Shown: positions 13,169 through 34,497, numbered from the stretch's first letter. The stretch: 64,000 nucleotides of DNA from an uncultured Actinomycetota bacterium (GCA_963822135.1 CAWGGI010000004.1:32812-96811), one strand, 5' to 3'. Notes: generated by a model from the sequence alone, not told the origin. Translations and numbers: made by a program.

Positions 13169-13513
13169 CGCTTCACGAACTGCATCGCTGCCCTGGGTCT
13201 TCGCGAGCTCACCCCCATCGGCGACGGGAACGACGTGATCAGCCACGGATACGCCTCCGACCTGCTGAGCGACGTGCTGGCTCACGCTCCGGCGGGAGGG
13301 GTTCTGGTGACCTTGCAGGTGCATCTGAACGTCATCGCGGTGGCCAGCCACGCCGGCATGCGGGCCGTCATCTTCTCCAGCAGCCGGATGCCCGACGACG
13401 AGATCATCGAACGGGCCACCGCCGAGGGGTTGTCCCTCCTCAGCTCGTCCGCCGACACCTTCGAGATCGTGGGACGGCTGTACGAATCCGGCATCCGCGG
13501 AGGCGGGGCATAG
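13165..13513 (+). CDS. DRTGG domain protein (one frame change near 13183)
   Basis: GTG at 13165 overlaps the upstream stop (GTGA). VTLHEL / IAAALGLRELTPIGDGNDVISHGYASDLLSDVLAHA...VTLQVHLNVIAVAS...FEIVGRLYESG matches the hydrogenase-cluster DRTGG proteins. Confidence 0.65.
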
Positions 13514-13557: not shown

Positions 13558-14334
13558 ATGCCAAGCCTCAGACGCTTCCGGGCCGACCTGCACATCCACA
13601 CCGGTCTTTCACCCTGTGGATCCGAGGAGATGACGCCCGCGGCGATCGTTGCGGCAGCGAAGGAGCTGGGACTTGACATGATCGCCGTCTGTGATCACAA
13701 CTCCGCGGGCAACGTCGCCGCCGTGCAGGAGGCCAACCGGCACGCGGACTCCACCCTTACCGTGCTCGCGGGTATCGAGGTGACCAGCATGGAGGAGGTC
13801 CACGTGGTGGGGCTCTTCCCCGGTGCGGCCGCGGCGGCGCGCGTCGCAGACCGGCTCCGGGATCTCCTGCCGCAGGCCGAGGGAGACTACTACTCCTACT
13901 TCGGACACCAGCTTCTTCTGGACGCGAACGGCGACCAGGTGGGAAGCGAGACGGCCGCTCTGGCCTTCGCCACCCCGCTCGACCTCACCGACACCGTGCG
14001 GCTGGTGCACGATGAGGGCGGCCTGGCTGTGGCGGCCCACGTCGACCGCCGGTCGTTCAGCGTCTTCTCGCAGTTGGGCTTCTTCCCTGCCGACGCCGGC
14101 TTCGACGCCATCGAGCTGTCCCTCAGGCGCCGTACGGAACCGTCTCGCGCAGCCGAATTCGCCCGCTTGGGCCTGCCGATGGTCGCGTCCTCGGACAGCC
14201 ACTACCTGGACGAGATCGGCAGGGCCTTCACCGACGTGTACGCGCTCGAACCCACGTTCGAAGAGCTGGCCTTGGCCTTCGCGAGCGAAGAGGGCCGGAG
14301 TGTCACTCCCGTTTGGAGGGATACCGATGCATGA
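13558..14334 (+). CDS. PHP-domain phosphoesterase (HfsD-like)
   Basis: FRADLHIHTGLSPCGS, IAVCDHNS, GIEVTS, AAHVDR and SSDSHY are the PHP metal-binding motifs. ATG at 13558 within ORF 12814..14334. Confidence 0.8.
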   Translation: MPSLRRFRADLHIHTGLSPCGSEEMTPAAIVAAAKELGLDMIAVCDHNSAGNVAAVQEANRHADSTLTVLAGIEVTSMEEVHVVGLFPGAAAAARVADRLRDLLPQAEGDYYSYFGHQLLLDANGDQVGSETAALAFATPLDLTDTVRLVHDEGGLAVAAHVDRRSFSVFSQLGFFPADAGFDAIELSLRRRTEPSRAAEFARLGLPMVASSDSHYLDEIGRAFTDVYALEPTFEELALAFASEEGRSVTPVWRDTDA

Positions 14335-14848
14335 CCTGTCGCTGTATCTGCTGGAAGTGCTGGTGAACTCCGTACGCGCGGGAGCAGGCCGGGTGGACAT
14401 CGCCGTGGTGATCGACCGCGCGACCGACCAGCTGCGGCTCACCGTGGACGACGACGGACCCGGGCTGGCGACGACGCCCGAGCAGACGCTGGACCCCTTC
14501 TACACGACCAAGCCCGGCAAGAAGACCGGCCTGGGTCTGAGCCTGTTGAAAGCCGATGCCCAGGCAGCGGGGGGCGACCTCGCCATCGGGCCTTCCCCCA
14601 CCCTCGGTGGAACCAGAGTGGAGGCCTGGATGAACTTCGACCACGTCGACCGGCCGCCGCTGGGAGATCTGGCCAGTTCCATCGTGGTGAGCGCCGTCAC
14701 CAACCCTGGAGTCGATTTCACCGTGAGTCTAGGAGGAGACGAGTTCGTCCCCCCGCTTGTCAAGGCGCCGCCCATCGAGGCTGCGTTCTTGCTCCAGCGG
14801 CACACGGAGGAACTCTCGAAGATAAACCCGAGCGAAAGGGAGTCATGA
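14327..14848 (+). CDS. Histidine-kinase-like ATPase (HATPase_c only) of [FeFe]-hydrogenase operons
   Basis: LLEVLVNSVRAG..., DDDGPGL, FYTTKPGKKTGLGLSLL. ATG at 14327 overlaps the PHP gene stop. Confidence 0.7.
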   Translation: MHDLSLYLLEVLVNSVRAGAGRVDIAVVIDRATDQLRLTVDDDGPGLATTPEQTLDPFYTTKPGKKTGLGLSLLKADAQAAGGDLAIGPSPTLGGTRVEAWMNFDHVDRPPLGDLASSIVVSAVTNPGVDFTVSLGGDEFVPPLVKAPPIEAAFLLQRHTEELSKINPSERES

Positions 14849-15841: not shown

Positions 15842-18800
15842 ATGGATCAGATCAGCAACCACGTACTCGTCTGCACCGGCGGTGGGTGCATCGCGTCCGG
15901 AGCTCTGGAGGTCAGCGCCGCGTTCACCAAGGAGCTCGAAGACCTGGGGATCGAACGGCAGACCCGCGTCATCGAGACCGGCTGCCTCGGCCCCTGCGCC
16001 GTCGGACCGGTCGTCCTCGTGTACCCGGACGGCGTCTTCTACCAGAACGTCAAGATCGAGGATGTCCACGAGATCGTCGAGGAGCATCTGCTCAAGGGCC
16101 GCGTGGTCACCCGGCTGGTGAGCCACGCTCCCGGCACCGACCGCTCCGTCGCCGAGATGAGCGACGTGGAGTTCTTCAACCGCCAGGTCAAGATCGTCCT
16201 GCGCAACTCGGGGATCATCGACCCGCTCAAGATCGAGGAGTACATCGCCCGCGACGGCTACCAGGCGCTGGCCAAGGTGCTCACCGAGATGACGCCCGAG
16301 CAGGTGGTCGAGCGAGGTCCTGCGCAGCGGCCTGCGCGGCCGCGGCGGCGCCGGCTTCTCCACCGGGCTGAAGTGGAAGTTCGCCGGCAAGACCGAGTCG
16401 CGACGCGAAGTACGTCCTCTGCAACGCCGACGAAGGCGACCCCGGCGCCTTCATGGACCGCTCGCGTCCTGGAGGGCGACCCGCACAGCCGTCATCGAAG
16501 GCATGACCATCGGCGCCTACGCCATCGGCGCCAAGGAGGGCTACGTCTACGTGCGGGCCGAGTATCCGCTGGCCGTCGAGCGGCTGCAGCTACGCCATCG
16601 ACCAGGCCACGAGATACGGGTCTGCTCGGCAAGGACATCATGGGCACCGGCTTCGACTTCGACCTCGAGATCCGCATGGGAGCCGGCGCCTTCGTCTGCG
16701 GCGAGGAGACCGCCCTGATGCCTCCATCGAGGGCAAGCGCGGCGAGCCGCGGCCGCGGCCGCCGTTCCCGGCCGTGAAGGGTCTGTGGGACAAGCCCAGC
16801 GTGCTCAACAACGTCGAGACCTTCGCCAACATCGCCCGCCATCATCCTCAAGGGCGCCGAATGGTTCGCGCGCCATCGGCACCGAGAAGAGCAAGGGCAC
16901 CAAGGTCTTCGCCCTCGGCGGGGCCAGGTCAACAACACCGGCCTCGTCGAGGTGCCGATGGGCATCCCGCTGGGCGAGATCGTCTACGACATCGGCGGCG
17001 GCATGCCCGAGCGGCAAGAAGTTCAAGGCCGCGCAGATCGGCGGTCCCTCCGGCGGCTGCATCCCGCGCCAGCACCTGAACGTGCCGGTCGACTACGAGA
17101 TCGCTGCAGGAGCTGGGCGCCATCATGGGCTCCGGCGGCCTGATCGTCATGGACGAGGACACCTGCATGGTCGACGTCGCCCGGTTCTTCCTCGACTTCA
17201 TCCAGGACGAGACCTGCGGCAAGTGCCCGCCCTGCCGGGTGGGCACCAAGCGCATGCTCGAGATCCTCACCCGCATCTGCAACGGGCAGGGCGAGGAGGG
17301 CGACATCGAGAAGCTCGAACGACCTGGGCAGCATCATCAAGGACACCGCGCTCTGCGGCCTCGGCCAGACGGCGCCCAACCCGGTGCTCTCGACCATCCG
17401 CCACTTCCGCCACGAGTACGAGGCCCACATCCAGCGACCAGCACTGCGAGGCCGGGCGTCTGCTCGACGCATGTTCACGGCCCCGTGCAGCAACGCCTGC
17501 CCGGCCAGCGTCAACGTGCCCGGCTTCGTCAGTCTCATCGGCGAGAAGCGCTTCGACGAGGCCCTGCACGCTGCACCGCGAACGCAACCCGTTGGCCAGT
17601 ATCTGCGGCCGGGTCTGCTTCCATCCCTGCGAGAGCAAGTGCCAGCGCGGCTCGCTCGACGAGGCGGTGGCCATCCGCGGCCTCAAGCGCTTCATGACCG
17701 AGCAGGAGACCGAGGTCGCAGCTGCCCAGAGTCCTCGAGAACGCCGAGAACGCGGCGCGCAAGGTGGCCGTCATCGGCGCCGGCCCGGCCGGCCTGTCCT
17801 GCGCCTACTTCCTGGCCCGCCTGGGCTACAAGCCCACCATCTTCGAGAAGGAACCGAGCGCGGGCGGCATGCTCGTCCAGGCCATTCCCGCCTACCGGCT
17901 GCCCCGCGAGGAGTTGGGCCGCGAGATCAGCATGATCGAGAGCCTGGGCGCCACCATCAAGACCGGCAAGGCCCTCGGCACGCGACTTCACCCTGGCCGA
18001 CCTGCGCGAACAGGGCTACGAGGCAGTGTTCCTCGGCGTGGGCGCTCCGGCCGGGGTCGCGCTTGGGCATCCCCGGCGAGAGGCGGCGAAGGGGTCACCG
18101 AAGGCGCTGACCTTCCTGCGCGAGTACAACGTGCACGGCACGGCCGAGGTGGGTGAGGAAGTGGCCATGGTCGGCGGGGGCAACTCCGCCATCGACGCGG
18201 CGCGCACCGCCCTGCGCCTGGGCGCCGAAGCACGTCACCATCCTCTACCGCCGCCAGCGCGAGCAGATGCCCGCCTGGGCCGAGGAGATCAACGCCGCCG
18301 ACGAGGAGGGCATCACCGTCCTGCCTCTGACGGCTCCCAAGCAGATCCTGCGCGACGCCCAGGGCAAGGTGGTGGGCGTGCTCTGTCAGCGGATGGCGTT
18401 GGGCGACTACGACAGGAGCGGCCGCCGCCAGCCGGTGGCCGGCCGCAACCCGGACTTCACGGTGCGCTGCGACCAGGTGATCGCCGCGATCGGCCAGGCC
18501 CTCGACGCGAAAGCGCTCGTCGGCGACCTGCCGGTGGAACTCCGGAAGGGGTGGATCAGTGACCGACGGCACGACCGGCGCGACCAGCGTCGACTGGCTC
18601 TTCGCCGGCGGCGACGCCGTCACCGGTCCCGCCTCGGTGGTGGAGGCCGTCGGGCCGGAGAGCGGGCCGCGGTAGCCATCGACCAGCACCTCACCGGAGC
18701 CAACCACGCCTTCTGGCGGCGCGATATCGCCGTCGACGTGTTCTTCGATCCCGATGCCGACCCGGTGGCTACTCCCCGGGCCGCGGTCGTATGCCTCGAT

Positions 18801-18946
18801 CCCGAACTGCGCGCCTGCACCTTCGACGAGGTCGAGCTGTCGTGGACCCTCGACACCGCCTGTGCCGAGGCGAAGCGATGCCTGCGCTGCGACTACGGCA
18901 AGGTACCCGTACCGGCCGCCGATCTGCCGAGGAAGAGGTGGACTGA
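15842..18946 (+). pseudogene. hydB: NuoF-like flavoprotein (HydB) fused to a GltD/NfnB-like NAD(P)H oxidoreductase; about 26 frame changes as assembled
   Basis: N-terminal 2Fe-2S ([23 protein letters not shown]). NuoF core ([63 protein letters not shown]). It then runs directly into GltD-like [62 protein letters not shown]. Extra bases at 16313, 16401, 16465, 16490, 16590 and 16609, a missing base near 16725, and further shifts through 18928. Fragments correspond to ORFs 15842.., 16503.., 16774.., 17125.., 17384.., 16785.., 17764.., 18026.. and 18153... Confidence 0.8.
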
Positions 18947-20732
18947 TGCCGATCCTCACCATCGACGACAACAGAGTCGAAGTGCCCGAGGGCACCATCG
19001 CTGCTGGACGCCTGCCGGCAGGCAGGCGCGCACATCCCCACCCTCTGCTACCTGGAGGGCGTGCAGGCCATCGGGGCCTGCCGCCTGTGCCTGGTCGAAG
19101 TGGAGGGCGCCCGCACGCTGGTGGCGTCGTGCGCCCAGCCGGCGACCGAAGGCATGGTGGTCAAGACCAACACGCCGCGGGTCCGCAGAGGCGCGGCGGG
19201 CGGTCGTGCGAGTTGCTGCTCTCCGAGCACGACGGCGACTGCCAAACCTGCGTCCGCAACGGCGACTGCGAGCTGCAGAGCATCGCCAGAGATCTGGCAC
19301 GTCGACACCATCACCTACGAGGGCGAGCAAGGCCCGGCAGGTCATCGACGACTCCACCCCGGCGCTCATGCGCGACACCGGCAAGTGCATCATGTGCCGC
19401 CGCTGCGTCACGGTCTGCAACCAGATCCAGGGCGTGGGCGCGCTGTTCCCGCAGAACCGCGGCTTCGCCACCGTCATCGGCCCGGCCTTCGGCGGCGACC
19501 TCGCCGACGTGGTGTGCGTCCAGTGCGGCCAGTGCGCCGCCGTCTGCCCGGTGGGCGCCATCACCGAGAACAGCGCCATCGACCGGGTGTGGGCGGCGCT
19601 GGACGACCCCGACAAGCACGTCGTCGTCCAGACCGCGCCCGCGATCCGCGGCCGCCCTGGGCGAGGAGTTCGGCTACGCGCCCGGCACCCTGGTGACCGG
19701 CAAGATGGTCGTCGGCCCTGCGCCGGCTGCGGCTTCGACGAGGTCTTCGACACGAACTTCACCGCCGACCTGACCATCATGGAGGAGGGCACCGAGCTGC
19801 TCACCCGCCTCAAGAAGGCGCTCGGTCGACAAGCGAGCAGGTGGCCCTGCCCATGTTCACCAGCTGCTCCCCGGGCTGGATCAACTACATGGAGCACTTC
19901 AATCCCGACATGCTGGCCAACCTCTCCACCTGCAAGTCGCCGCAGCAGATGCTCGGCGCGCTGGCCAAGACCTACTACGCCGAGAAGATGGGCATCGAAG
20001 CCCGAGGACATGGTGGTGGTCTCGGTCATGCCCTGCACGGCCAAGAAGTTCGAGTGCACCCGGCCGGAGATGATCCGACAGCGGCTGCCAGGACGTCGAC
20101 ATGGTGCTCACCACCCGCGAACTCGCCCGCATGATCAAGCAGGCCGGCATCGACTTCCGCATCCTGCCCGACGGCCAGATGGACCGGCCCCTCGGGCATG
20201 TCCACGGGCGCGGCCGACATCTTCGCCGTCACCGGCGGCGTGATGGAGGCGGCCCTGCGCACCGCCTACGAGATCGTCACCGGCAAGCCCTTCCCCTTCG
20301 CCGGCCTGCACGTGCAGCCCATCGCCGGGCTCGAGGGCGTCAAGGAGGCCGCGGTCACCATCGAGGGGACCGTGCCGGAGTGGGCGTTCCTCAAGGGCGC
20401 CACGCTCAAAGTGGCCGTGGCCCACGGCCTGGCCAACGCGCAGAAGGTGATCGACCGCATCCGCTCGGGCGAGGCCGAGTACCACTTCGTCGAGGTCATG
20501 ACCTGTCCGGGCGGCTGCATCGGCGGCGGCGGGCAGCCCCGCCTCACCTCCGACGCGGTGCGCGCAGGCCCGCATCCGCGCCATCTACGCCGAGGACGAG
20601 AGTCGCGAACTGCGCAAGTCGCACGAGAACCCCGACGTCCAGAAGCTCTACGAGGAGATGCTGGGCAGCCCGCTCGGCGAACTCTCCCACAAGCTGCTTC
20701 ACACCAAGTACACGGAGAAAGAAAGGGTATAG
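18946..20732 (+). pseudogene. hydA: [FeFe]-hydrogenase catalytic subunit HydA, copy 1; at least 10 frame changes as assembled
   Basis: ATG at 18946 after AGGAAGAGGTGG. N-terminal 2Fe-2S (CRLCLVEVEG) and FeS domains (CIMCRRCVTVC, CVQCGQCAAVCP). H-cluster motifs FTSCSPGW, MPCTAKKFE and VEVMTCPGGCIGGGGQP. Tail LLHTKYTEKERV with stop at 20730-20732. Pieces lie in all three frames (ORFs 18754.., 19061.., 18153.., 19841.., 20198..). Confidence 0.85.
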
Positions 20733-20774: not shown

Positions 20775-21286
20775 GTGGATACCATGACACCTGAGGACAC
20801 CATGATGACCGATGAGCCCGCGCTCATATTGATCGTCGACGACGACTTCGATTTTCTCGAGCTCAACCGTCTGATCCTCGAGAGAGCGGGCTATCGCGTC
20901 ACCACAGCCGCGGACCCGAGGCAGGCCCTCCGCGCCATGGCGCAGGAGAAGCCGGCTCTGGTGATCACCGACCTCATGATGACCAGTCCGGATTCGGGCT
21001 TCTCGTTCAGCCGGGCCATCAAGGAGGAGCCGGCCTACGCGGACATCCCGGTCATCATCGCCACGTCGGTATCCGCCGCCCTGGGCCTGGATTTCCGGCC
21101 CCGTTCCGCCGATGACCGCGCCACCATGAACGTCGATGCCTATTTCGACAAGCCTCTCGACGCCGCGCGCCTGCTCGCCACGGTGGCCGAACTCCTCGCC
21201 GCGGGGAAAGCGGACGCGGCCGAAGAACCCGCGGCGGCGTCGAGGGAGCCGCCGCGGAACCGGCTCCCTCGGAAGCGAGCGAGTGA
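20775..21286 (+). CDS. Stand-alone response-regulator receiver protein
   Basis: LILIVDDD..., VITDLMMTSPDSG, DAYFDKPL. The annotated frame reads on to 21656. A TGA at 21284-21286 in the -1 frame, overlapping the next ATG, suggests an indel in the Ala/Pro/Glu tail near 21235. Confidence 0.7.
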
Positions 21287-23308
21287 TGTCTGTCCAGGAC
21301 AACGCGCTCGTCACCATCATCGGCGAGCGCTGCCGAATGTGCTACGCCTGCATCCGCGAATGCCCGGCCCGAGCCATCCAGGTGGTGGACGGACAGGCCA
21401 GCGTCATGCCGCAGCGCTGCATCGGCTGCGGCAACTGCGTCAGGGTGTGCAGCCAGAACGCCAAGGCCGTACGGGACGACACCGAGAAGGCCTTCAACCT
21501 CATCGACTCGCGTCTGCGGACGGCGGCCATGGTGGCCCCCAGCTTTCCCGCGGAGTTCACCGACATCGAGCCCGGACGTCTGGTGGCTATGATCCGCGCG
21601 CTCGGCTTCTCCTCGGTGCACGAGGTATCGCTGGGCGCCGACCTGGTGGCTTATGAGTATGCCGAGTTGCTGCGCCGGGATCCCGAAGGTCGCTATATCA
21701 CCACCCCGTGCCCGGCCGTGCATTCCTACGTTCGGAAGTACCGGCCGGATCTCACCCGCTTCCTGGCTCCTGTCGCCCCCCCCATGGTGGCGATGGCCAG
21801 GGCGCTGCGTCACGATCTGGGTGACGACCTGCACGTGGTGTTCATAGGGCCCTGTATCGCCAAGAAGTGGGCGTCCATCGACACCACCCACTTGGAGATC
21901 GAGGCGGTCCTCACCTTCGCCGAGCTCAGGCAGATGTTCGAGAAGCGCGGCATCACGCCCGAGGGGGTCACCGCCGAAGACGATTTCGACCCGCCGTATG
22001 GTGGGGTCGGCGCCGTCTTCCCCATCTCGCGGGGGCCTGCTGCAGACCGCCGGGCTCCAGGCCGACCTTCTCTCGGGCGAGATAATCGTCGCCGAGGGCC
22101 GTGACGAGTTCGTCGACGCGCTGGAGGAGTTCGACATCTCCCACACGGGCGCCCGCCTCCTCGACATCCTCTCCTGCCAAGGCTGCTTCGCGGGAGCCGG
22201 CATGACCAGCGACGAGACCAACATGCAGCGCCGCGCCCGCATCAGCAGCTACGCCAATACCCGCATCGCGAACTTCGAGGACGAGCAGCGCGAACAGATC
22301 GCATCAGCCCGGGAGCGCTACAAGGACATCGACCTCGCTCGCGAGTTCGAGGCCGACCCGCAGACTCTCGACAGCCCCGACACGCCCGCGGAGCTCAAGG
22401 AGATCCTGGAGCGGATGGGCAAGCACGGGGAGAAGGATTTCCTCAACTGCGGCGCCTGCGGCTACCACACCTGCCTCGATCATGCTCGGGCCATCTATGC
22501 CGGTCTCGCCGATTCCGAGATGTGCCTTCCCAACACCATCGAGCAACTGCGCACCGCGTACGGCGAACTCGAGGAATCCCACCGCTCTCTGGAGGACGCA
22601 CAGGAGGCGCTGGAGAAGTCCACCAGACTGGCGAGCATGGGGCAGCTGGCGGCCGGCATCGCCCACGAGGTGAACAACCCGCTGGGGATCCTTCTGCTGC
22701 ACGCCAACCTGGCGCTGGAGGAGGCCGAGGAGCACTGCCAGCTTCATGAAGACCTGGCGACCATCGTCGACCAGGCCAACCGCTGCAAGCGCATCATCTC
22801 CGGTCTTCTCAACTTCGCCCGTCAGAGCCGGGTGGTCCGTCAGCCCACCGATCTGGCCGAACTGGTCCAGAAAGTGCTGCATACCTTGCCCGTGAGCGAA
22901 GGGGTGCAGATGGAGGTAGAGGACCGTCTCACGGATGCGGTGGCCGAGATCGACTCCGACCAGATCGTCCAGGTGCTCAGCAACCTGCTGAGTAACGGTC
23001 AGCACGCCATGCCCGATGGCGGCAGGGTCGTGGTGACCCTCACCGACACGCCGGACGAGGTGGTCATCGAGGTCGCCGATACCGGGGTGGGGATCCCCGA
23101 AGAGAACATGAGCAGGCTCTTCGACCCGTTCTTCACCACCAAACAGGTAGGCATGGGGACCGGGCTGGGACTGGCCATCACCCATGGGATCGTCAAGATG
23201 CACCGCGGGCAGATCACCGTCGAATCGAACGCCGACCCGCAGGCCGGTCCCACAGGTACGACCTTCACGGTCCGGCTGCCGCGTTACGAAGAACAAGCGG
23301 CCGCTTAA
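21286..23308 (+). CDS. [FeFe]-hydrogenase-like (HydS-type, group C-like) sensor histidine kinase; one frame change near 22030
   Basis: 2x[4Fe-4S] (CRMCYACIRECP, CIGCGNCVRVCS). H-domain with TTPCPAV, IGPCIAKKW and LSCQGCFAGAG. Extra Fe-S motif CGACGYHTCLDHARAIYAGLADSEMC. HisKA H-box AAGIAHEVNNPLG. HATPase N/G boxes (NLLSNGQHA, DTGVGIP, GTGLGL). Joined from ORFs 21136..22104 and 21998..23308. Confidence 0.8.
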
Positions 23309-23326
23309 GGTGCCGGGGGCGAAAGC

Positions 23327-24481
23327 GTGATGCAACCCCAGGAACAGGTGGTCCGGATCGGGATGGTGGACGACGAGGAGCCGCTGTGCCTGGCCGTCAG
23401 CCGCATCCTCGCCAAGTACAAGGTGCACGTGCCCGATGTGGGTGTCGACGCCTCCTACGACTTCGCCTATTTCACGTCGGGCGAGCAGTTCATGCAGGCT
23501 GCGAACGAGGGCGCTCAGTTCGACCTCCTGTTGCTCGACCTCAAACTCCCCGGAATGAGCGGGCTCGAGATACTCACCGAGCTCACCCGCCAGAACCGGG
23601 GAGTCCTCAGCATCATGATCACCGCCTACGCCACGTTCGAGACCGCCGTACAGTTCACCAAGCTGGGAGGCTACGACTTCCTGGCCAAGCCCTTCTCCCC
23701 CGACGAGCTGCGCTATGCGGTCCGCAAGGCCACCGTCCAGTTCATCGTGAGCAAAGAGGCGCGGCGCCTCGCCGACGAGAAGCGTCAGATCCGCTTCAAC
23801 TTCATCTCCGTGCTCGCCCACGAGCTCAAAGCTCCCCTCAACGCCATCGAGGGCTATCTCAAGATCCTGCAGATGGACGAACCCGACGAGCGCCGGCAGA
23901 TGATCGACCGCAGCCTCATCCGGCTGGACGGCATGAAGAAGCTCATCTTCGACCTCCTGGACCTCACCCGCATCGAATCGGGGCAGAAACAGAGGACTTT
24001 CACCACCGTGGACGTGAGCGCTCTGGCGAAGAGCACCGTGGAACTGTTCACGGCAGAGGCCGCTGCGCGTGGTATCACCATGCAGGTGGAGCCGGGTGAG
24101 ACCGTCGAGATGGTCGCCGACGCCAGCGAGATAGAGATCGTCCTCAACAACCTCGTCTCCAATGCGGTGAAGTACAACCGCGACAACGGCTCCGTCCGGG
24201 TCTCCGTGGGTCGGGGGCCCGAAGGCGTCGAGATCTCGGTGACCGACACCGGCATCGGGCTGACGCCCGAAGAGGCCGCCAAGCTCTTCACGGAGTTCGT
24301 CCGCATCAAGAACGAGGATACGATCAAGGTGATCGGCAGCGGCCTGGGACTGTCCACGGTACGCAAGCTCGCCCAGCTCTACGGCGGCGACGCGAACGTG
24401 GAGAGCGTCAAGGGCGAGGGCAGCACCTTCACCGTGACGCTCCACGACGCGGGCCCGGCGCCCGCGGCCGGCGCGCAGTAG
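23327..24481 (+). CDS. Hybrid receiver - histidine kinase (REC-HisKA-HATPase_c)
   Basis: REC (MVDDEE, LLLLDLKLPGMSG, FLAKPF). H-box SVLAHELKAPLN. NLVSNAVKY, DTGIGL, GSGLGLS. Intact 384-aa ORF. Confidence 0.85.
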   Translation: MMQPQEQVVRIGMVDDEEPLCLAVSRILAKYKVHVPDVGVDASYDFAYFTSGEQFMQAANEGAQFDLLLLDLKLPGMSGLEILTELTRQNRGVLSIMITAYATFETAVQFTKLGGYDFLAKPFSPDELRYAVRKATVQFIVSKEARRLADEKRQIRFNFISVLAHELKAPLNAIEGYLKILQMDEPDERRQMIDRSLIRLDGMKKLIFDLLDLTRIESGQKQRTFTTVDVSALAKSTVELFTAEAAARGITMQVEPGETVEMVADASEIEIVLNNLVSNAVKYNRDNGSVRVSVGRGPEGVEISVTDTGIGLTPEEAAKLFTEFVRIKNEDTIKVIGSGLGLSTVRKLAQLYGGDANVESVKGEGSTFTVTLHDAGPAPAAGAQ

Positions 24482-24520: not shown

Positions 24521-24566
24521 GAAGGCCGGCGGCCCGTCGCGCTGACGGGGCCGCCGGCCTTCGTTT
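24521..24566. terminator. Strong hairpin between convergent operons (bidirectional terminator candidate)
   Basis: GAAGGCCGGCGGCCC - 12-nt loop - GGGCCGCCGGCCTTC (15 bp) followed by GTTT. Confidence 0.6.
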
Positions 24567-24618: not shown

Positions 24619-26574
24619 TCATTCGATGAATTTGCCGCGTGCCTTGTACTTGGTATGGAGCAACTCGTGGCTCTTGTGGCCGCAAGGCCCGTCGGTGAGG
24701 AACTCCTGGTAGACCCGCGTGACCGCCGGGTTCTCGTACGACTTGCGGACGTCCAGGGTCTTCTCTTCGGAGTAGATGGCCTTGGCTCGGGCAGCCCGGA
24801 TCTCGGGGCTGGTGGGAATGGGCTGGCCGCCGCCGCCCAGGCATCCGCCGGGGCAGGCCATGAACTCGACGAAATGGCACTCGCTGAACTTGCCGCCGGC
24901 CTTGATGTCTTCCATCACCTTCTTGGCATTGGCCGTTCCGTGAGCCACCGCGACCTTGAGCGTGGCGCCCTTCAGCCAATCCCAGCTGGGCACGAGGTGC
25001 TTGACGATGTCGGGGACCGGGCCCACATCGGGGATGTTGACCTCGGCGTAGCGGACGCCCTCGAACCCGCGGACGGGGACGATGTCACCCTGCTCGTAGA
25101 TGCTCTCCACTTTCCTGCCGGTCACCAGTTCGATGACGGTGCGCAGGGCGGACTCCATGACCCCGCCGGTGGCGCCGAAGATGAGACCGGAGCCCGTCGC
25201 CGTGCCGAACGGGTTGTCGAAATCGGACTTGGGCAGGCCGGGCACCTGGATGCCCGCCTGCAGGAACATCTTGCCGAGCTCGCGGGTGGTGAGGCCGAAA
25301 TCCACGTCCTTGTAGCCGCTGTCGCGCATCTCCGGGCGGTTGCACTCGAACTTCTTGGCGGAGCAGGGCATGAGCGCCACGCTGACGATGTCGGCCGGGT
25401 CGATACCCATCTTCTCCGCGTAGTAGGTCTTGATGAGCGCCCCGAACATCTGCTGAGGGCTCTTGGCCGACGAGAGGTTGGGGATGTATTCGGGATAGAA
25501 GTGCTCCAGATACTTCACCCAACCGGGCGAGCAACTGGTGAACTGGGGCAACGCTTGGTCCTTGTCGCCCAGCACCAGCGCCTTGTACAGGCGGAGGATG
25601 AGCTCCGTGCCCTCTTCGATGATGGTGAGGTCGGCCGTGAAGTTGGTGTCGAACACCTTCTCGAAGCCGACGCGACGCAGCGCGGTGTTCATCTCCCCCG
25701 TGACCGAGGTGCCCGGCTCGAGGCCGAACATCTCCCCCATGCCGGCACGCGGCGACGGCGCGGTCTGGATGATCACGTGCTTGGTGGGATCGTCGAGCGC
25801 ATCCCAGACCGGATACAGGGCAGGCGTTGCGTACAGTGCCGCGGTGGGACAGCGATTGATGCACTGACCGCAGTTGATGCACACCACGTTGAGGAGCGGT
25901 TTGTCCAGGAAGGTGCTGATGTGCACCTCGTTCGACCGGTTCACGGCTTCGAGGACACCCACTTCCTGCAGGTCGATACAGGTCCGCACGCAGCGCCGGC
26001 AGCGGATGCACTTGTTCATGTCCCGCACCACCGAATAGCTCGACGTGTCGGTGGGGATGGGCACTTCGGGATGGCCGAAGCGGAACTTGTCCACCCCGTA
26101 CTCTTCGGCCAGGGACTGCAGTTCGCAGTTGCCGTTGCGGATGCAGGAGTAGCAGTCGCCGCAGTGCTCGGAGAGCAGCAGGTCGAGCACATGCCGGCGG
26201 GCGATGCGCACCGCCTTGGAGTAGCTGTTGATGCGTATGGGTGAGGTGATGGGGTACGAGCAGGCGGCCTGCAGCGTGCGCTGGCCTTCGACCTCGACCA
26301 CGCAGATGCGGCAGATGCCGGCCACTTCGAGGTCGGGGTGATAGCACAGCGTGGGAATGCGGATGCCCATGCTCTTGGCGGCCTCGAGGATGGTAGTCCC
26401 GAAGGGGACTTTGGTCTCCATGCCATCGATGGTCACGGTGACCGTCGCCCCGATCGCCTCAGGCGATTCCGGCTCCGCCACCGGCTCGAAGAGCTGGCTG
26501 AGGGGGGCACGCCGCTTGGCCGCGTAGGTCTTCTCCCCCTTGGGAGGGAAGTCGGTCTCTATGGTATCGCTCAT
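24619..26574 (-). CDS. hydA: [FeFe]-hydrogenase catalytic subunit HydA, copy 2 (intact, 651 aa)
   Basis: 2Fe-2S (CRICVVEVEG), CGDCYSCIRNGNCELQ, CIRCRRCVRTC and CINCGQCINRCP. H-cluster motifs FTSCSPGW, MPCSAKKFE and VEFMACPGGCLGGGGQP. Confidence 0.92.
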   Translation of the reverse strand: MSDTIETDFPPKGEKTYAAKRRAPLSQLFEPVAEPESPEAIGATVTVTIDGMETKVPFGTTILEAAKSMGIRIPTLCYHPDLEVAGICRICVVEVEGQRTLQAACSYPITSPIRINSYSKAVRIARRHVLDLLLSEHCGDCYSCIRNGNCELQSLAEEYGVDKFRFGHPEVPIPTDTSSYSVVRDMNKCIRCRRCVRTCIDLQEVGVLEAVNRSNEVHISTFLDKPLLNVVCINCGQCINRCPTAALYATPALYPVWDALDDPTKHVIIQTAPSPRAGMGEMFGLEPGTSVTGEMNTALRRVGFEKVFDTNFTADLTIIEEGTELILRLYKALVLGDKDQALPQFTSCSPGWVKYLEHFYPEYIPNLSSAKSPQQMFGALIKTYYAEKMGIDPADIVSVALMPCSAKKFECNRPEMRDSGYKDVDFGLTTRELGKMFLQAGIQVPGLPKSDFDNPFGTATGSGLIFGATGGVMESALRTVIELVTGRKVESIYEQGDIVPVRGFEGVRYAEVNIPDVGPVPDIVKHLVPSWDWLKGATLKVAVAHGTANAKKVMEDIKAGGKFSECHFVEFMACPGGCLGGGGQPIPTSPEIRAARAKAIYSEEKTLDVRKSYENPAVTRVYQEFLTDGPCGHKSHELLHTKYKARGKFIE

Positions 26575-26608
26575 GTGTATGCTTCCTTGTTATAAGGAAA
26601 AGTGCCCG

Positions 26609-27812
26609 CTACCGGGACCTTTTCGCGTGTCCCATGATCTCGTCGCCGAAGCTCTCGATGATGGAGGTGAACGCCACCGAGCTCGTCTGCCCCAGACCAC
26701 ACTTGGAGGCCACCTGCATGGTGTTGCAGAGGGCCCGGAGGTCGTGCAGGTAATCCGTGGTGCAGGTGCCCTCCATGAGCATGTCCACCCCTTCAAGCAG
26801 CTTGCCGTTGCCCAACCGGCAGGGGGTGCACTGCCCGCACGACTCGTCGACGAAGAACTCGAGCAGGTTGTGAGCGACCTCCAGCATGTCGCGACCCGGA
26901 CCGATGACGATGATGGAGCCCCCGGTGGGCACATCCTCGAACGCTATGCGGCGGCTGAAAGCGGACCGCGGGACGCAGCGCCCCGAAGCTCCCCCACCTG
27001 CACGGCCTTGGCATCCTCGCCGCCGACCTCTTCCAGCAGCTCCGCGACGGTGATGCCGAACGGGAATTCGTAGACGCCCGGACGGGCGCAATCGCCGGAC
27101 ACGCTGAACAGCTTTCTCCCGGTCGACGTGGCAGTCCCGGAACTCTTGAACCAGTCGACTCCCTTGGCGAAGATGCAGGCCACCCAGGCCAGCGTCTCCA
27201 CGTTGTTGACCACCGAGGGCCGGTGCAGAAATCCCGAGACCACCGGGAACGGGGGCCGGTTCCGCGGCTCCCCGCGGAAGCCTTCCAGGGATTCGATGAG
27301 AGCGGTCTCTTCGCCGCACACATACGCTCCCGCCCCGAGCCCCACGACGATATCGAAATCGAAGCCTTCGATGCCGGCTATGCCTTTGCCCAGGAGCCCG
27401 GCCTTACGACGGGCCTCGACGACCTCTTCGAGATGATGCTTGAGATAGGCGTATTCGGCCCGCAGGTAGATCAGGCCCAGCGAGGCGCCGATGGCTCGGG
27501 CGCCGATGGTCATGCCCTCGATCACCAGTTCGGGATAGTCGGTGAGGATGACCCGGTCCTTGTACGTGCCGGGCTCGCCCTCGTCGGCGTTGCAGATTAG
27601 GTACTTGGGTTCCCGCTTCTCGGCGGCCGCGAAGTCCCACTTCATCCCCGTGGGGAATCCTGCGCCGCCGCGGCCCTTGAGCCGGGAGTCCCGCACCAGG
27701 TCGATGATGGCCCCGCGGGACATCTCCAGCGCGTTCTTGAGGCCCTCGCCGGCCGTGACGGAGTCGAAGGTCAGGCCGCGCCCCGGGTCTCGATGATGGT
27801 TTCGACGGTCAT
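26609..27812 (-). CDS. hydB: NuoF-like flavoprotein subunit (short form, no extra ferredoxin domains); two frame changes
   Basis: [66 protein letters not shown]. The ATG at 27812 overlaps the nuoE stop (ATGA). Shifts near 27780 and 26990 (ORFs 26944..27870 and 26609..27319). Confidence 0.85.
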
Positions 27813-28336
27813 CTCGCACGCTCCGGGGCTCGCTGGGTACCATGCTCTTCGGCTTTGAGGCGGTATTCATCCACGATGGCGCGAACCTTGGCCTGGTTCA
27901 GCTGGGTGTAGACCTGCTCGTTCACCAACATCGCCGGCCCCTGGTCGCACATGCCCATGCAGTTGGTCCACTGCAGGGTGAAGGTGCCGTCCGGGGAGGT
28001 CTCTCCAAAATCGAGGCCCAACGCCTCCTCGAGCTGCTTGGCGACCAGCTCCTTGCCGGCAAAATCGCAGGAAAGCGTGCGGCAGAGGCGGAACACATAG
28101 CGCCCTTCGGTCTCGGGCTGGAGGAACGCGTAGAAAGTGGCGACCGCGTAGACCTCCACCGGGTGGATGTCGAGCACGTCCGCGATCAACTGCATGGCGT
28201 AGCTGTCGACGCCCCTGTACTTGGCTTTGACCTCTTGGAGGATGGGGATGAGGCTGCTCCGGTTGTAGCCGGTCAGTTCCGCGATGGCCGTGACGTCATC
28301 GCGCAACCGATCGCGCTCGGTCACAAGGGCCATCAT
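27809..28336 (-). CDS. hydC: NuoE-like [2Fe-2S] subunit (copy 2)
   Basis: SLIPILQEVK..., RLCRTLSCDFAG, TNCMGMCDQGPA; 175 aa, intact. Confidence 0.9.
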   Translation of the reverse strand: MMALVTERDRLRDDVTAIAELTGYNRSSLIPILQEVKAKYRGVDSYAMQLIADVLDIHPVEVYAVATFYAFLQPETEGRYVFRLCRTLSCDFAGKELVAKQLEEALGLDFGETSPDGTFTLQWTNCMGMCDQGPAMLVNEQVYTQLNQAKVRAIVDEYRLKAEEHGTQRAPERAR

Positions 28337-28716
28337 TCGCCTCCCTGCTTCGCGAGAAGGGCGGCCACCAACCGCACCAGGGTGGCCGGGTCGGCCGGCT
28401 TCTCCAGGAACTCGTCGACCGGGACGATCTCTTCGTCCTTGCCGATGCTGAGACCCATGGCCTGGTTGACGCTGGTGAGCATGAGGATGGGCAGTTCGAA
28501 CCCCTTGCGCCTGAGCTGCCGCGCCAGACGCAGTCCGTCATCGGGTTCCTCCATCATCACGTCGAGGACCAGAAGGTCGGGTGCAAGAGACTCGACCGCC
28601 CGGAGACCCTCGTCGGCGTTCGACGCCGCCTCTACCGTGTAGCCCTCCCTCTCCAGGACGAGCCTACAGGCAGCGACAACGTCTGGATCATCGTCTACGA
28701 CCAAGATTTTCGACAT
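28333..28716 (-). CDS. Stand-alone response-regulator receiver protein heading hydrogenase operon 2
   Basis: ILVVDDDPD, LLVLDVMMEEPDDG, EFLEKP; 127 aa. The stop overlaps the nuoE start. Confidence 0.85.
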   Translation of the reverse strand: MSKILVVDDDPDVVAACRLVLEREGYTVEAASNADEGLRAVESLAPDLLVLDVMMEEPDDGLRLARQLRRKGFELPILMLTSVNQAMGLSIGKDEEIVPVDEFLEKPADPATLVRLVAALLAKQGGE

Positions 28717-28879
28717 GCACTCCCCCTAAACGGATGACAACACTTATCCTACCGCGCGTGCGGATGCGAACCGTCGTGGACCGCCCCCTAGTGCGCTGCA
28801 GTCTAGCACGCACTCCTCACCATCGCGCAATCGATTATCACTACGTGTATACGAGATATCGTCCCATGCTTGCGTGGTA

Positions 28880-29955
28880 TCAGCAGATACGCGGCAGAGT
28901 CTCCCCCGGCGGCATGTCGATGATCCGTTCGCCGCCGATCCTGGTGGCGAGGACGGCCTTCCCTCCCGCCTGGGCGGTGACTTCGCCGATGATCGCCGCC
29001 GAGGTTCCGAGCGGATGGGACCGGAGCGCAGCCAGGACGTCCGCCGCAGCCTGCGCGGCGCAGAACAGCACCAGCTTGCCCTCGTTCGCGACCGCGAGGG
29101 CTCGAAGCCCAGCAGGTCGCACGCGCCGCGCACGGAGCCGCGTACAGGTATGCGGGTCTCGTGGATCCGCATTCCGTATCCGCAGGCCTCGGCCATGTCG
29201 CACAGGGCGCCGGCCAGTCCTCCCCGAGTGAGGTCGCGCATGGCGTGCATCTCCGGCGCCGAATTTCCAGCACCGCCGCGGACCAGCTCCCCGAGGGGAG
29301 CGCAGTCGCTGACCAAGTCGGCGGAGAAACGAGATGCCCGAGCGCCGGGCCATGATCGCCGCGCCGTGGTCGCCCAGAAGGCCGTTCACGATGATGGCGT
29401 CGTCCGGCCGGATGCGATCGGGGCCCAGCCGGGACGACCCGACGATCCGACCGATCCCCGCCGTGTTGATGATACAGCCCGTCACATCGACCCTTCTCGA
29501 CCACCTTGGTATCGCCGGTGACCACGTTGACTCCGGCCTCCTTGGCCGTCGACCCCACCGAGCGGAGACGGCCGCCAGGTCGGCGATGGGAAGTCCCTCC
29601 TGGAGCACCAGCGCCAGGCTCATCCACAGCGGCTCTGCGCCCATGACCGCCAGGTCGTTGACCGTGCCGCACACGGCCAGCTTGCCGATGTCACCGCCGG
29701 GAAAGAACAGGGGCGGACGACGTAGCTGTCGGTGGTGAAGGCCAGGTCACAGGCCGCTGCATCGGCGGCCACGGATCCCGTGGACCCGCAGTCGCGCAGC
29801 CGGAGCACGGCGGAGTCGTCCAGCGGATGAAGGAGCGGGTTGTCGAGAACGGGCAGGATGACCGACTCGATGAGTTCCTTGGTGAGAAGGCCTCCACCGC
29901 CGTGGGCGAGCAGCACTCGGTCCGATCTGATGCGTCGTGAGCGCCCGGGACTCAT
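28880..29955 (-). pseudogene. hypE: Hydrogenase maturation protein HypE; about 7-8 frame changes
   Basis: LLAHGGGG, CGTVNDLAVMGAEP, VVTGDTKVV, MRDLTRGGLA and the C-terminal PRIC (carbamoylated Cys motif) are spread over three frames (ORFs 29620.., 28880.., 28803.., 28744..). The ATG at 29955 overlaps the hypD stop. Confidence 0.85.
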
Positions 29956-31046
29956 GAGTCCCTCCTTGTCCCGTATCGCCAGTGTGCGGCGCAGGCCCCC
30001 TCGCTGGACACCATGCAGGGGCCCTCGGGCGTGAGCGGAGAGCAGCGCCGGTCGAACAACGGACATTCGGGCGGAGCGATGACTCCTCGCAGCACGTCGC
30101 CGCAGCGGCAGCCCCGGGGCGGCTCCCCGGGCACGATCTCGACCCCGAACTTCGTGGCTGCGTCGTGCTCGCTGAACTCGGCGCGTACGGCCAGCCCGCT
30201 CCCCGGGATCACCCCGAGCCCCCTCCATTCGCTGTCGCAGGCCTCGAAGACCTGGGCCATGATCTGCTGGGCGATCTGGTTGCCCTCCCTGGTGACCGCA
30301 CGGCCGTACTCGATCTCCACTTCGCTGCGGCCCTCGGCTATCTGACAGAGCAGCATCGCGATGCCCTCCAGCAGGTCGACATCTTCGAAACCGGTCACGA
30401 CACAGGGGAGGCGATACTCGTCCGCCAGAAAGGAGAAGACCGCAGCCCCGGTGATCACACTCACATGTCCGGGGCAGATGAACCCGTCGATGGCCACGTC
30501 TCCCCCGCTCGCCAGAGCCCTCATCGGTCCCGGCATGGTCTTGAGGGCGCTCAGCACCGAGAAGTTCGCCAAGCCCTCGTCCCGGGCCGAGCGGATGGAC
30601 ACTCCCACTCCGGGGACGGTGGTCTCGAACCCCACCCCCAGAAAGACCACGGAACGCGCGGGATCTTCCCGGGCAAGCGCGAGCGCATCGGTTGGAGAGT
30701 AGACCACCTGGACGGACGCTCCCCCCGCCCTCTCCCGCTCCAGTGAGGAATCGCTTCCCGGCACCCGGACAAGGTCGCCGAACGTGGCCACCGTCACCTC
30801 GGGCCGCCGACACAACTCGATGGCCGCGTCGATGTAGCCGTTGGGGGTGACGCACACCGGGCACCCCGGACCGGAGATCAGACGCACCGATTCCGGCAGC
30901 AGGGAGCGCAGCCCGCTGCGGAAGGCCACCATGGTGTGAGTCCCGCACACCTCCATCAGCCGCACCGTGCGGCCGATGCCCGCCGAGTACTCGGCAATGC
31001 GCGACAGCCCCGACGCGCCGGCGGGATGTCCCTCGGCGATCACCAC
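29952..31046 (-). CDS. hypD: Hydrogenase maturation protein HypD
   Basis: MEVCGTHT, GPGCPVCV, FETT, and the C-terminal Cys-rich motif CRCGDVLRG...CPLF...C...PEGPCMVSSEGACAA. Intact, 364 aa. Confidence 0.9.
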   Translation of the reverse strand: MVIAEGHPAGASGLSRIAEYSAGIGRTVRLMEVCGTHTMVAFRSGLRSLLPESVRLISGPGCPVCVTPNGYIDAAIELCRRPEVTVATFGDLVRVPGSDSSLERERAGGASVQVVYSPTDALALAREDPARSVVFLGVGFETTVPGVGVSIRSARDEGLANFSVLSALKTMPGPMRALASGGDVAIDGFICPGHVSVITGAAVFSFLADEYRLPCVVTGFEDVDLLEGIAMLLCQIAEGRSEVEIEYGRAVTREGNQIAQQIMAQVFEACDSEWRGLGVIPGSGLAVRAEFSEHDAATKFGVEIVPGEPPRGCRCGDVLRGVIAPPECPLFDRRCSPLTPEGPCMVSSEGACAAHWRYGTRRDS

Positions 31047-31264
31047 GCCTCACTCGACCAGGTGCCGTCCAGCATGGCCTTCCATTCGAGGACGTCCCGC
31101 TCGGTCCACCGTTCGATGGCGAATCCGGCATGCACCAGAAGGTAGTCGCCGACGGCGACGCCCTCCACCAAGGATAGGTCGACATCGCGCCGCGCCCCGT
31201 CCACCGAGACCACGGCCTTCGTCCCCGTCACTTCCACCACTTCGCACGGCACGGCTAAGCACAT
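31040..31264 (-). CDS. hypC: Hydrogenase maturation chaperone HypC
   Basis: Begins MCLAVPCEVVE (the essential Cys2). 74 aa within ORF 31040..31489. Confidence 0.9.
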   Translation of the reverse strand: MCLAVPCEVVEVTGTKAVVSVDGARRDVDLSLVEGVAVGDYLLVHAGFAIERWTERDVLEWKAMLDGTWSSEAW

Positions 31265-33745: not shown

Positions 33746-33841
33746 CGCGTGACGGCTCTGACGTCACCGGAGCTCATCGCGCGGCGGTTCCGCCGTCACC
33801 GGGATTCATCGCGCGGCACCGGTGCCCTGGTGATGACGCTC
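33742..33841 (-). repeat. 32-nt tandem repeat (3 units plus a degenerate one) spanning the hypB stop and hypF start; each unit ends CGCG-ATGA
   Basis: ATG codons at 33809, 33777 and 33745, each overlapping a TGA (ATGA). The units encode MNPGDGGTAAR*, MSSGDVRAVTR* and then HypF MNSGDGW.... Confidence 0.8.
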
Positions 33842-34480
33842 GATCGCTCCGGCCACCCAGTCCACAAGACCCTCGATGCCCTGGCCCGTCCGGCAGGAGA
33901 CCTCGATGAGCGGGGCATGCGGGTTCAGCCCGCGGAAGTCCTTCACGAAGGTCTCCATATCGAAGTCGGTATGCTCGAGCAGGTCCATCTTGTTCAGAAC
34001 CAGCGCCGAGACCTCGTGGAAGAGCAGAGGGTACTTGGCCGGCTTGTCGTGCCCTTCCGCGACGCTGAGGATGCCGACCTTGGCGTCTTCGCCCAGGTCG
34101 AATTCGGCCGGGCAGGCTATGTTGCCCACGTTCTCGATGAACACCAGGTCGAGCGTCTCCAGCGGCAGCTCGGCGAGACCCCTGGCCACCAGCGCGGCCT
34201 CCAGATGGCAGCCCCCGTTGGTGAGCAGCTGGATGACGGGGACCTCGAGCGCCCCGATCCGCTGGGCGTCCCGAGTCGTGGCGATATCGCCCTCGAGCAC
34301 GGCCAGGCTGAACCGCTCGCGCAGCAGCGGGATGGTCTTCTCGAGCAGTGAGGTCTTGCCGGCCCCCGGCGCGCTGATGAGATTGAGAGCCGTGACCCCC
34401 GCCGTGGCGAGCAGCTTCCGGTTCTCTGCCGCCGCCTGATCGTTCGCCTCGAGGATGTTCTGCAGGACCTTGATCTCCAC
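33806..34480 (-). CDS. hypB: Hydrogenase nickel-incorporation GTPase HypB
   Basis: P-loop SAPGAGKTS, ENVGNIACPAEFDLGE (CH/metal motif region GGCHLEA), NKMDL. GTG start after AGAGGGAG. Confidence 0.9.
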   Translation of the reverse strand: MEIKVLQNILEANDQAAAENRKLLATAGVTALNLISAPGAGKTSLLEKTIPLLRERFSLAVLEGDIATTRDAQRIGALEVPVIQLLTNGGCHLEAALVARGLAELPLETLDLVFIENVGNIACPAEFDLGEDAKVGILSVAEGHDKPAKYPLLFHEVSALVLNKMDLLEHTDFDMETFVKDFRGLNPHAPLIEVSCRTGQGIEGLVDWVAGAIERHHQGTGAAR

Positions 34481-34497
34481 GTTCGCGCGCTCCCTCT

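Follow-up and report, generated by a model that had tools for sequence, protein, structure and literature searches.

Three coding-like reading frames lie on the plus strand at positions 20775-24481 of a 64,000-nt stretch of DNA from an uncultured Actinomycetota bacterium (GCA_963822135.1 CAWGGI010000004.1:32812-96811), a stretch with about 66% G+C that we refer to as the window and whose positions are used throughout. The middle gene of the region encodes HydS-HK, a hydrogenase-like sensor histidine kinase, and its neighbours encode REC1, a stand-alone receiver, and REC-HK, in which a receiver (REC) domain is joined to a second histidine kinase. The actinobacterium that carries this signalling cluster inhabits wetland. 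An earlier note on this DNA had placed the cluster between two [FeFe] hydrogenase operons, and HydA1 (about 18946-20732, +) and HydA2 (24619-26574, -) are indeed found on either side. The features are, with lengths in amino acids (aa):

20802-21286, plus strand: REC1, stand-alone receiver (Pfam Response_reg, E 5e-17), about 160 aa once corrected
21286-23308, plus strand: HydS-HK, hydrogenase-like sensor histidine kinase, 673 aa, one gene without the extra C at 22030
23327-24481, plus strand: REC-HK, consisting of REC, HisKA and HATPase_c domains (Pfam)
24524-24559, no strand: G+C-rich hairpin between the convergent REC-HK and HydA2 genes, from its sequence a likely terminator
28333-28716, minus strand: REC3, second stand-alone receiver and first gene of operon 2 (Pfam Response_reg, E 3.5e-22)

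REC1 has alternative starts at ATG 20784 and GTG 20775, and its TGA stop (21284-21286) shares the last base with the HydS-HK start codon (ATG, 21286-21288). This TGATG overlap, described in the earlier note, exists once a 2-base insertion at 21233-34 is removed; in the sequence as given, the receiver open reading frame (ORF; frame 0) misses the TGA (frame 2). The stop of REC3 overlaps the start of the NuoE/HydC gene, and the two stand-alone receivers are 37% identical. Pfam confirms that a receiver and a REC-HK hybrid flank HydS-HK, and a hidden Markov model search of all 64 kb detected three REC domains only, none of them with an output domain, as had been claimed. The window also encodes other DNA-binding regulators, namely Rex (10384) and one that binds cNMP (35536). 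Both further sensing layers that had been named, Rex and an Hfs-like module, were found. Near the hairpin a consensus scan marked a terminator-like site (24547-24561; consensus scan only), the number of terminators being no higher than in shuffled sequences, and a sigma70 promoter scan gave no match.

Domain structure of HydS-HK

When the frame break in the gene is read through, Pfam finds five matches in HydS-HK: a Fer4 dicluster, Fe_hyd_lg_C, FeS (PF04060), HisKA and HATPase_c.

21313-21462, plus strand: two [4Fe-4S] ferredoxin motifs, CxxCxxCxxxCP and CxxCxxCxxxC, residues 10-59 (Pfam Fer4_10/Fer4)
21520-22198, plus strand: H-domain, residues 79-304 (Fe_hyd_lg_C, E 6e-36, cut-off 22 bits), including the inserted C at 22030
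22442-22531, plus strand: C-terminal Fe-S motif Cx2Cx4Cx16C, residues 386-415 (Pfam FeS PF04060, E 2e-8)
22637-23284, plus strand: kinase core, HisKA 451-513 (with His460 in AAGIAHEVNNPLG) and HATPase_c 556-666 (Pfam)

The hydrogenase-like sensor fused to a classical HisKA kinase that the earlier note had proposed is thus a single 673-aa, group-C-like gene. Its four diagnostic strings (TTPCPAV, GPCIAKKW, SCQGCFAGAG and AHEVNNPLG) are all present, and residues 1-430, on whose likeness to Fe_hyd_lg_C models that proposal had been made to depend, contain the match given above.

Residue equivalences were fixed by alignment to solved group A enzymes. The H-domain cysteines C142, C190, C297 and C300 correspond to the ligand cysteines of the H-cluster (alignment to T. 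kivui HydA1). Pro141 occupies the position of the relay cysteine (Cys299), Gly188 that of Met353 and Leu295 that of Met497, while Lys193, which aligns with CpI Lys358, is kept. In 77 full-length orthologues of 51-93% identity, the four cluster cysteines, Gly188, Lys193, the cysteines of the C-terminal motif (C388-x2-C391-x4-C396-x16-C413) and the H-box AAGIAHEVNNPLG are invariant (77/77), and the relay position is held by T, S, P or A, never by C. All eight cysteines of the ferredoxin motifs are invariant in the two alignments A1 and A2. On sequence grounds, the H-cluster site is under strong selection.

The kinase is of the complete bifunctional type (HExxN), and its class I boxes (H460, N566/N570, D598xGxG, F612, G624xGxG) are all invariant. 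Among NCBIfam models, the C-terminal 240 residues are nearest to AtoS, VirA-like and ZraS kinases, with scores far under the equivalog cut-offs, and the middle of the protein is nearest to monomeric [FeFe] hydrogenase. An AlphaFold 2 model (mean pLDDT, a per-residue confidence score, 73.5; 80-94 in the H-domain) has a long helix (414-442) that begins directly after C413 and runs into the DHp domain, a helical hairpin (449-512) of low confidence in this monomer model, which is followed by the ATP-binding domain. In Foldseek searches the front of the model matched the hydrogenases CbA5H, DdH and HydABC, and the back matched the cytoplasmic domain of ZraS (34% identity); no solved HydS-type structure was among the PDB alignment and Foldseek matches. 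Pfam detects no PAS domain, and there is no membrane segment (maximum Kyte-Doolittle mean over 19 residues, 1.18). HydS-HK is accordingly predicted to be a soluble protein in which a domain without the proton-relay cysteine, with predicted binding of an H-cluster, is connected by a helix to an AtoS/NtrB-type kinase core.

A conserved three-gene signalling set

A protein search returned more than 100 full-length relatives (about 670 aa) with the identical Pfam set. From a scan of species-representative genomes, which gave 547 confirmed candidate stretches, 80 loci were kept, all from metagenome-assembled genomes (MAGs). They belong to Actinomycetota (Thermoleophilia/Gaiellales), Planctomycetota, Hydrogenedentota, Eisenbacteria, Fermentibacteria, Acidobacteriota, Latescibacterota, Myxococcota, Neomarinimicrobiota and Brocadiia. 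The set of HydS-HK, a stand-alone receiver and REC-HK is conserved across at least ten phyla and is not peculiar to this genome. The HydS-HK module is always found in or beside HydABC-type clusters in these 80 loci, except that five (L051, L055, L060, L068 and L071) have HydS-HK and REC-HK with no hydrogenase nearby.

REC-HK follows HydS-HK at its 3' side in 70 of 74 scorable loci (30/33 in Actinomycetota, 40/41 in other phyla). The exceptions are mostly artefacts of ORF calling or contig ends; in L015 and L017, two of the MAGs labelled MFD, the REC-HK gene itself is split or run-on. The protein has an N-terminal receiver (Asp71), HisKA (His165) and HATPase_c, is soluble, and contains no further sensor domain. 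Conservation is complete or almost so at Asp71, at His165 and in the N, G1 and G2 boxes. The residue four positions after the histidine is always A or S, so that the HisKA phosphatase motif is without T/N; from what is known of this motif, REC-HK may be kinase-only.

Of the 80 loci, 68 have an adjacent stand-alone receiver; in Actinomycetota it is upstream, in the other phyla it sits between the two kinases. Most Actinomycetota share, on one strand, the order HydA1, REC1, HydS-HK, REC-HK, REC3, NuoE, NuoF, HydA2, with REC3 overlapping NuoE. The REC3-NuoE-NuoF-HydA2 block (24619-28716 in the window) is inverted in the lineage of the window and in L002, L004 and L010; in the other Actinomycetota compared (L007-L039) REC3 directly follows REC-HK, making the four signalling genes contiguous. 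By family likeness, HydS-HK is closest to AtoS/ZraS, the receiver of REC-HK to LuxO/AtoC and its kinase to TorS/PhoR, REC1 to PhoB and REC3 to OmpR.

In some Planctomycetota, NtrC-type sigma54 activators (REC, Sigma54_activat and HTH_8) are encoded divergently upstream of an operon with the order NuoE-NuoF-HydA-HydS-HK-REC-REC-HK (L041:3583-5055, L053:3589-5016 and L059:610-2031, all on the minus strand). The activator has a Cache-HAMP kinase beside it in L059, and a REC + GCV_H-like protein in L053.

An RNA-Seq run of a freshwater metagenome (X25) has contigs that match HydS-HK (22081-23112) and HydA2 (24653-25568) at 97-100%. These few contigs of very low depth hint that both genes are expressed in situ.

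Upstream of REC3, AT-rich blocks (28795-28860, minus strand) are conserved in the closest relatives: GATATCTCGTATACAC at 28845-28860, the -10-like AGTGATAATCG at 28832-28842, and GTGCTAGACTGCAGC at 28795-28809. From their sequence they are likely to serve operon 2 as promoter or operator. Upstream of REC3, none of 31 loci has a Rex box.

A proposed signalling cascade and its alternatives

We favour, with moderate confidence, a reading where HydS-HK is one H2/redox-responsive kinase gene in a cascade that leads from HydS-HK to REC-HK and on to REC1 and REC3. H2 would bind, or be slowly turned over, at the H-cluster, whose redox state would be shared with the N-terminal clusters through an electron path. 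A resulting conformational change in the helix beginning at the last Fe-S cysteine would alter autophosphorylation of His460. From there the phosphoryl group would pass to the AtoC/LuxO-like receiver of REC-HK and switch its PhoR-like kinase, a step for which we rely on the near-obligate co-occurrence of the two genes and on family resemblance. REC-HK would in turn phosphorylate the PhoB/OmpR-like receivers REC1 and REC3, as their family resemblance suggests, and these may act by protein-protein contact, or the signal may end at a DNA-binding regulator whose gene lies elsewhere. The most likely targets are the two neighbouring hydrogenases of electron-bifurcating type. The model assumes no redox change at the C-terminal cluster of HydS-HK, because the counterpart of this cluster in TamHydS, a sensory hydrogenase of group D, is not reduced by H2 (PMC13104023).

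Several points weigh against this cascade. Given the TamHydS result, a redox switch at the C-terminal cluster is doubtful (PMC13104023). The order of phosphotransfer has family resemblance and gene co-occurrence as its only basis, and the DHp domain of HydS-HK is invariant in 77/77 orthologues, so that covariation between kinase and receiver is unusable. The literature searched contains no demonstrated signalling by any [FeFe] sensor. The NtrC-type regulators near the Planctomycetota loci may belong to a neighbouring Cache-HAMP kinase, the contigs labelled as RNA may contain DNA, and the frame break in HydS-HK could yet be a private, very recent frameshift of this strain.

The earlier note had seen a multi-step phosphorelay at this locus. 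In such a relay the REC-only proteins would be intermediates or phosphate sinks and the final output a conventional DNA-binding response regulator encoded elsewhere in the genome, a possibility that we consider rather unlikely. It would account for the lack of any output domain in 64 kb, and it is consistent with the NtrC-type activators divergently upstream in several Planctomycetota loci, with the AtoS/ZraS (NtrB-like) type of the HydS-HK kinase core, and with the [NiFe] sensor system, which ends at the NtrC-type HoxA (PMC10073562). A His-Asp-His-Asp relay would need parts that are missing or differently placed, as HydS-HK contains no REC, Pfam finds no Hpt domain and the receiver of REC-HK is N-terminal. 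REC-HK also retains a complete, conserved ATP-binding kinase core and so is not a transferase like Spo0B or ChpT. Since there is no Hpt and this kinase core is complete, a two-tier kinase cascade fits better than the relay. It also speaks against the relay that no regulator travels with the conserved set of HydS-HK, REC and REC-HK, that the NtrC-type gene of L059 adjoins its own Cache-HAMP kinase, and that, to our knowledge, Actinomycetota generally lack sigma54. A conventional transcription factor as the output would nonetheless be possible, as NtrC-type activators do occur upstream of some Planctomycetota loci.

It is unlikely that HydS-HK senses not H2 but redox state (the ferredoxin or NAD(P)H pool, via three accessory clusters) or O2/CO, with the H-domain persisting as a structural or cluster-holding relic. 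The three accessory [4Fe-4S] sites and the loss of the proton relay would agree with such a role, as would the group C1 proteins of a recent survey, in which H-cluster motifs are hardly detectable (PMC11406978), the unresponsiveness of the C-terminal TamHydS cluster to H2 (PMC13104023), and the presence of Rex at the same locus, which shows that redox control is in use there. What speaks against this is the strict conservation of all four H-cluster cysteines and of Lys193 in at least ten phyla, together with the constant linkage of the gene to hydrogenase operons; moreover TmHydS and TamHydS, with the same substitutions, bind the H-cluster and react with H2 (PMC8163306).

Compared with the cascade as set out above, we consider it quite improbable that the receiver-only proteins are themselves its endpoints, with REC3 binding HydABC or the RsbW-like/DRTGG/PHP module of operon 1 and gating activity or direction post-translationally, with no transcription factor involved. 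REC3 is translationally coupled to the NuoE/HydC subunit by overlapping genes. If true, a bifurcating hydrogenase would be controlled by phosphorylation without any transcription factor, and the TSCSP hydrogenases described below may belong to the same story.

Very unlikely is a role of HydS-HK as a structural or regulatory subunit of the bifurcating hydrogenase ('BfuT') that feeds or drains electrons, its kinase being secondary. In most phyla the gene shares an operon with HydABC genes, where it often comes straight after hydA, and such a protein has been called the T subunit (PMC11406978). A secondary kinase is difficult to reconcile with the invariance of His460 and the kinase boxes and with the co-conservation of a dedicated REC-HK partner, and a subunit role with the five loci where HydS-HK and REC-HK occur and no hydrogenase is nearby.

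Frame breaks and assembly quality

In the window as given, HydS-HK runs in frame 1 from ATG 21286 to about 22035 and then in frame 2 to the stop at 23308. The protein reads ISRG before the shift, where relatives read ISGGLLQ. The cause is a single base:

22030, plus strand: single inserted C, apparent frame change, absent from L001 and from public contigs

A second break, missed by the earlier note, is an extra GG at 21233-34 in the tail of REC1, which after correction ends ...AAEPAPSEASE*, as does the receiver of L001. L001 is the contig of P0001, an unbroken protein of 673 aa that is 99% identical to HydS-HK; over 2.5 kb the contig is 98% identical to the window with exactly two gaps, at 22030 and 21233-34. 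Contigs of seven public runs were compared with the region. All those that cross 22029/30 (runs X2, X5, X6 and X26) lack the extra base and all those that cross 21233 (X3 and X5) lack the two bases, so that none of the public contigs spanning either site agrees with the window. The codons 3' of the break differ from those of L001 in 24 places, 21 synonymous and 3 non-synonymous, and 20 of the 24 base changes are at third positions of the corrected frame. This synonymous excess and third-position bias indicate that the 3' part of HydS-HK has been kept under purifying selection.

Frame breaks are frequent in the neighbourhood. Since a GC3 frame plot was too noisy for counting them, tblastn was used with the intact proteins of L002, a Gaiellales MAG (85% aa identity) with the same gene order as the window, and revealed frame switches in many neighbouring genes, among them the first sensor gene, the NuoF-GltD fusion (at least 6), HydA1 (at least 3), NuoF2 and HypE. 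About 15 further frame breaks were counted in about 20 kb relative to intact orthologues, at sites between 12324 and 34000 and beyond (for example 12590, 16400-20700, 20073, 20197, 26977-26990 and 29713). Several are contradicted by independent public contigs, those of run X27 opposing three (20073, 20197 and 26990). An automatic count of broken genes came out too high, owing to long in-frame extensions of ORFs, and was replaced by reading the 80 loci by eye; truly split signalling genes occur in 4 of 19 MFD MAGs, which we take to be long-read assemblies, versus 0 of 61 others. The window itself resembles an unpolished long-read assembly, and any pseudogene or frameshift call in it needs a check at the level of reads.

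The frame breaks in HydS-HK and REC1 are most likely assembly errors, and HydS-HK a single gene that is intact in nature. The earlier note had allowed that correction at 22030 might reveal two separate genes; it yields one, intact in more than 100 relatives, and the dense breaks in neighbouring genes, typical of an error-prone assembly, lead us to reject the two-gene reading. That the frameshift is real, leaving a pseudogene or two genes (a truncated hydrogenase-like fragment with a stop at 22104 and a separate sensor-less kinase from about 21998), agrees with the window as given and is hardly credible in view of the 98% identical L001 and every spanning contig from four public runs, the 21 to 3 ratio of codon changes, the broken state of conserved neighbours and the intact genes of all non-MFD relatives. 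The exact 41-mer across the frameshift is absent from species-representative genomes, the nearest of which (L004) is a different species of 90.6% nucleotide identity. Programmed frameshifting was also considered and rejected, as in relatives a single frame encodes the protein and there is no conservation of the shift site.

Hydrogenases and other genes around the locus

The group A hydrogenases HydA1 and HydA2 carry FTSCSPGW in place of the canonical TSCCP, with serine at the position of a [4Fe-4S]H ligand (C300 of CpI) and the relay cysteine retained. Among the 80 related loci, (T/S)SCSP is present in 94 of 95 HydA ORFs adjoining the sensor module. A serine at this position has been mentioned, without biochemistry, in PMC11406978, and no characterised TSCSP-type hydrogenase was found in the literature searched.

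Operon 1 begins with a second kinase-fused hydrogenase-like sensor (11546-13165, +, with a break near 12590). It has an N-terminal HATPase_c_2 domain of RsbW/anti-sigma type, two Fer4 motifs, a diverged H-domain and the Cx2Cx4Cx16C site; intact relatives have about 520 aa (L023:368-1936), and in L023 the relay position is Val. Genes for DRTGG (13169-13513), PHP (13594-14304) and HATPase_c (14327-14812) proteins follow. The HydB of operon 1 (15842-18923, +) is a fusion of about 1026 aa, intact in L002 and with at least six frame changes in the window, which combines NuoE-like, NuoF (Complex1_51K, NADH_4Fe-4S) and GltD-like (Fer4_20, Pyr_redox_2) parts. This suggests an electron partner different from that of operon 2, perhaps NADPH-linked.

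The Rex ORF upstream (10384-11493, +) has 370 aa, with the Rex domains at residues 20-192. A stretch of about 110 aa at its C-terminus shares 36% identity with the DRTGG-like protein encoded in operon 1; the ORF could represent a fusion of Rex with DRTGG or one more artefact of the assembly. A search for Rex boxes gave two weak matches, a number reached in 14 of 100 shuffles and not significant; a weak Rex-box-like site, TGTGAAACGCATAACA (10370-10385), overlaps the start of the Rex ORF and is likewise not significant.

Minus-strand genes at 28883-38178 and 44248-56726 encode HypE, HypD, HypC, HypF, HypB, a [NiFe] hydrogenase and a carbon monoxide dehydrogenase/acetyl-CoA synthase (CODH/ACS) cluster with a pterin-binding protein, CdhD with an FeS motif, a Prismane/CODH protein and a CooC-like ATPase. 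The cNMP-binding regulator occupies 35536-36162. From this gene content, the organism combines three hydrogenase types with Wood-Ljungdahl genes.

Significance

HydS-HK bears on whether, and how, 'sensory' [FeFe] hydrogenases signal. A 2026 study of TamHydS overturned the favoured idea of an Fe-S redox switch and called for interaction partners (PMC13104023). HydS-HK carries its output domain on the same polypeptide as the sensor, with the partner genes adjacent, so that direct assays of H2-dependent autophosphorylation and phosphotransfer would be feasible. The module seems to govern electron-bifurcating hydrogenases in wetland and sediment anaerobes that are abundant and uncultured, and, as the host has CODH/ACS and a [NiFe] hydrogenase, it bears on the balance of H2 production and consumption in methane-producing habitats. 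The value added by the window itself is modest, the class being already catalogued and the local copy coming from an error-laden assembly.

Comparison with known systems

HydS-HK shares with the sensory enzymes TmHydS (group C, M2f) and TamHydS (group D, M2e) the two N-terminal [4Fe-4S] motifs, the four cluster cysteines in the absence of the relay Cys299, the C-terminal Cx2Cx4Cx16C site and a bifurcating group A hydrogenase next door (PMC8163306). At the Met353 position it has Gly, as TmHydS does, and at the Met497 position Leu, as in TamHydS. It differs from both in that its Fe-S site leads through one helix into a complete HisKA/HATPase_c kinase, with no PAS domain, and in that its P3 motif is one residue shorter (CxGC); it is too distant from either for placement without a tree. 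Judged by sequence, HydS-HK has every feature used to recognise sensory group C/D enzymes (PMC8163306) except PAS, and it is not a member of M2f, its predicted signalling domain being a kinase instead of PAS.

The class has been catalogued before. HydDB lists C1 as 'histidine kinase-linked (putative)' (PMC5037454), and a 2024 survey reports group C proteins with HATPase_c, as well as 'BfuT' proteins that carry a His-kinase domain, next to BfuABC in Hydrogenedentota and Caldithrix abyssi (PMC11406978). HydS-HK resembles these in joining a hydrogenase-like sensor to a kinase domain beside group A3 genes (PMC5037454, PMC11406978), and the related loci include one from Hydrogenedentota (L058) whose orthologue shares this layout. 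Forms with kinase domains appear under both C1 and C3 (PMC11406978), and HydS-HK may fall under either. The publications on C1 and BfuT are genomic only and make no mention of receiver or REC-HK partners (PMC11406978).

A parallel in function may exist with the [NiFe] regulatory systems HoxBC-HoxJ-HoxA (Cupriavidus necator) and HupUV-HupT-HupR, where a low-turnover hydrogenase reports H2 to a histidine kinase that governs hydrogenase expression. That system employs an NtrB-like kinase and an NtrC-like regulator (PMC10073562). It differs in having an unrelated sensor, in a separate complex with a PAS kinase, and one known DNA-binding output, whereas HydS-HK unites an [FeFe]-type sensor and a kinase in one polypeptide, followed by a second kinase and receiver-only proteins. 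With a sensor of Fe_hyd_lg_C type, HydS-HK is not a member of the [NiFe] system, though it may work alike.

The kinase core is of the AtoS/ZraS/NtrB HisKA type, matching AtoS (E 7e-57) and ZraS and carrying the H-box HEVNNPL with its ExxN motif. Unlike those kinases, HydS-HK has no membrane or periplasmic sensor, and its scores far under the equivalog cut-offs mean that it is no orthologue. In the multi-kinase networks DivJ/PleC-DivK and LovK-LovR/PhyK, stand-alone receivers work between kinases as diffusible switches or as sinks for phosphate. The DVU0259/DivK-type model matches both REC1 and REC3 with scores well below its curated cut-off, and the likeness to these networks is one of logic only, homology having been compared no further than the REC fold.

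Taken together, HydS-HK is a genuine member of a widespread, catalogued, biochemically uncharacterised class of presumed H2 sensors (HydDB group C; 'BfuT'), to which the signalling set of three conserved genes and the close association of this set with TSCSP-type hydrogenases are possibly new additions.

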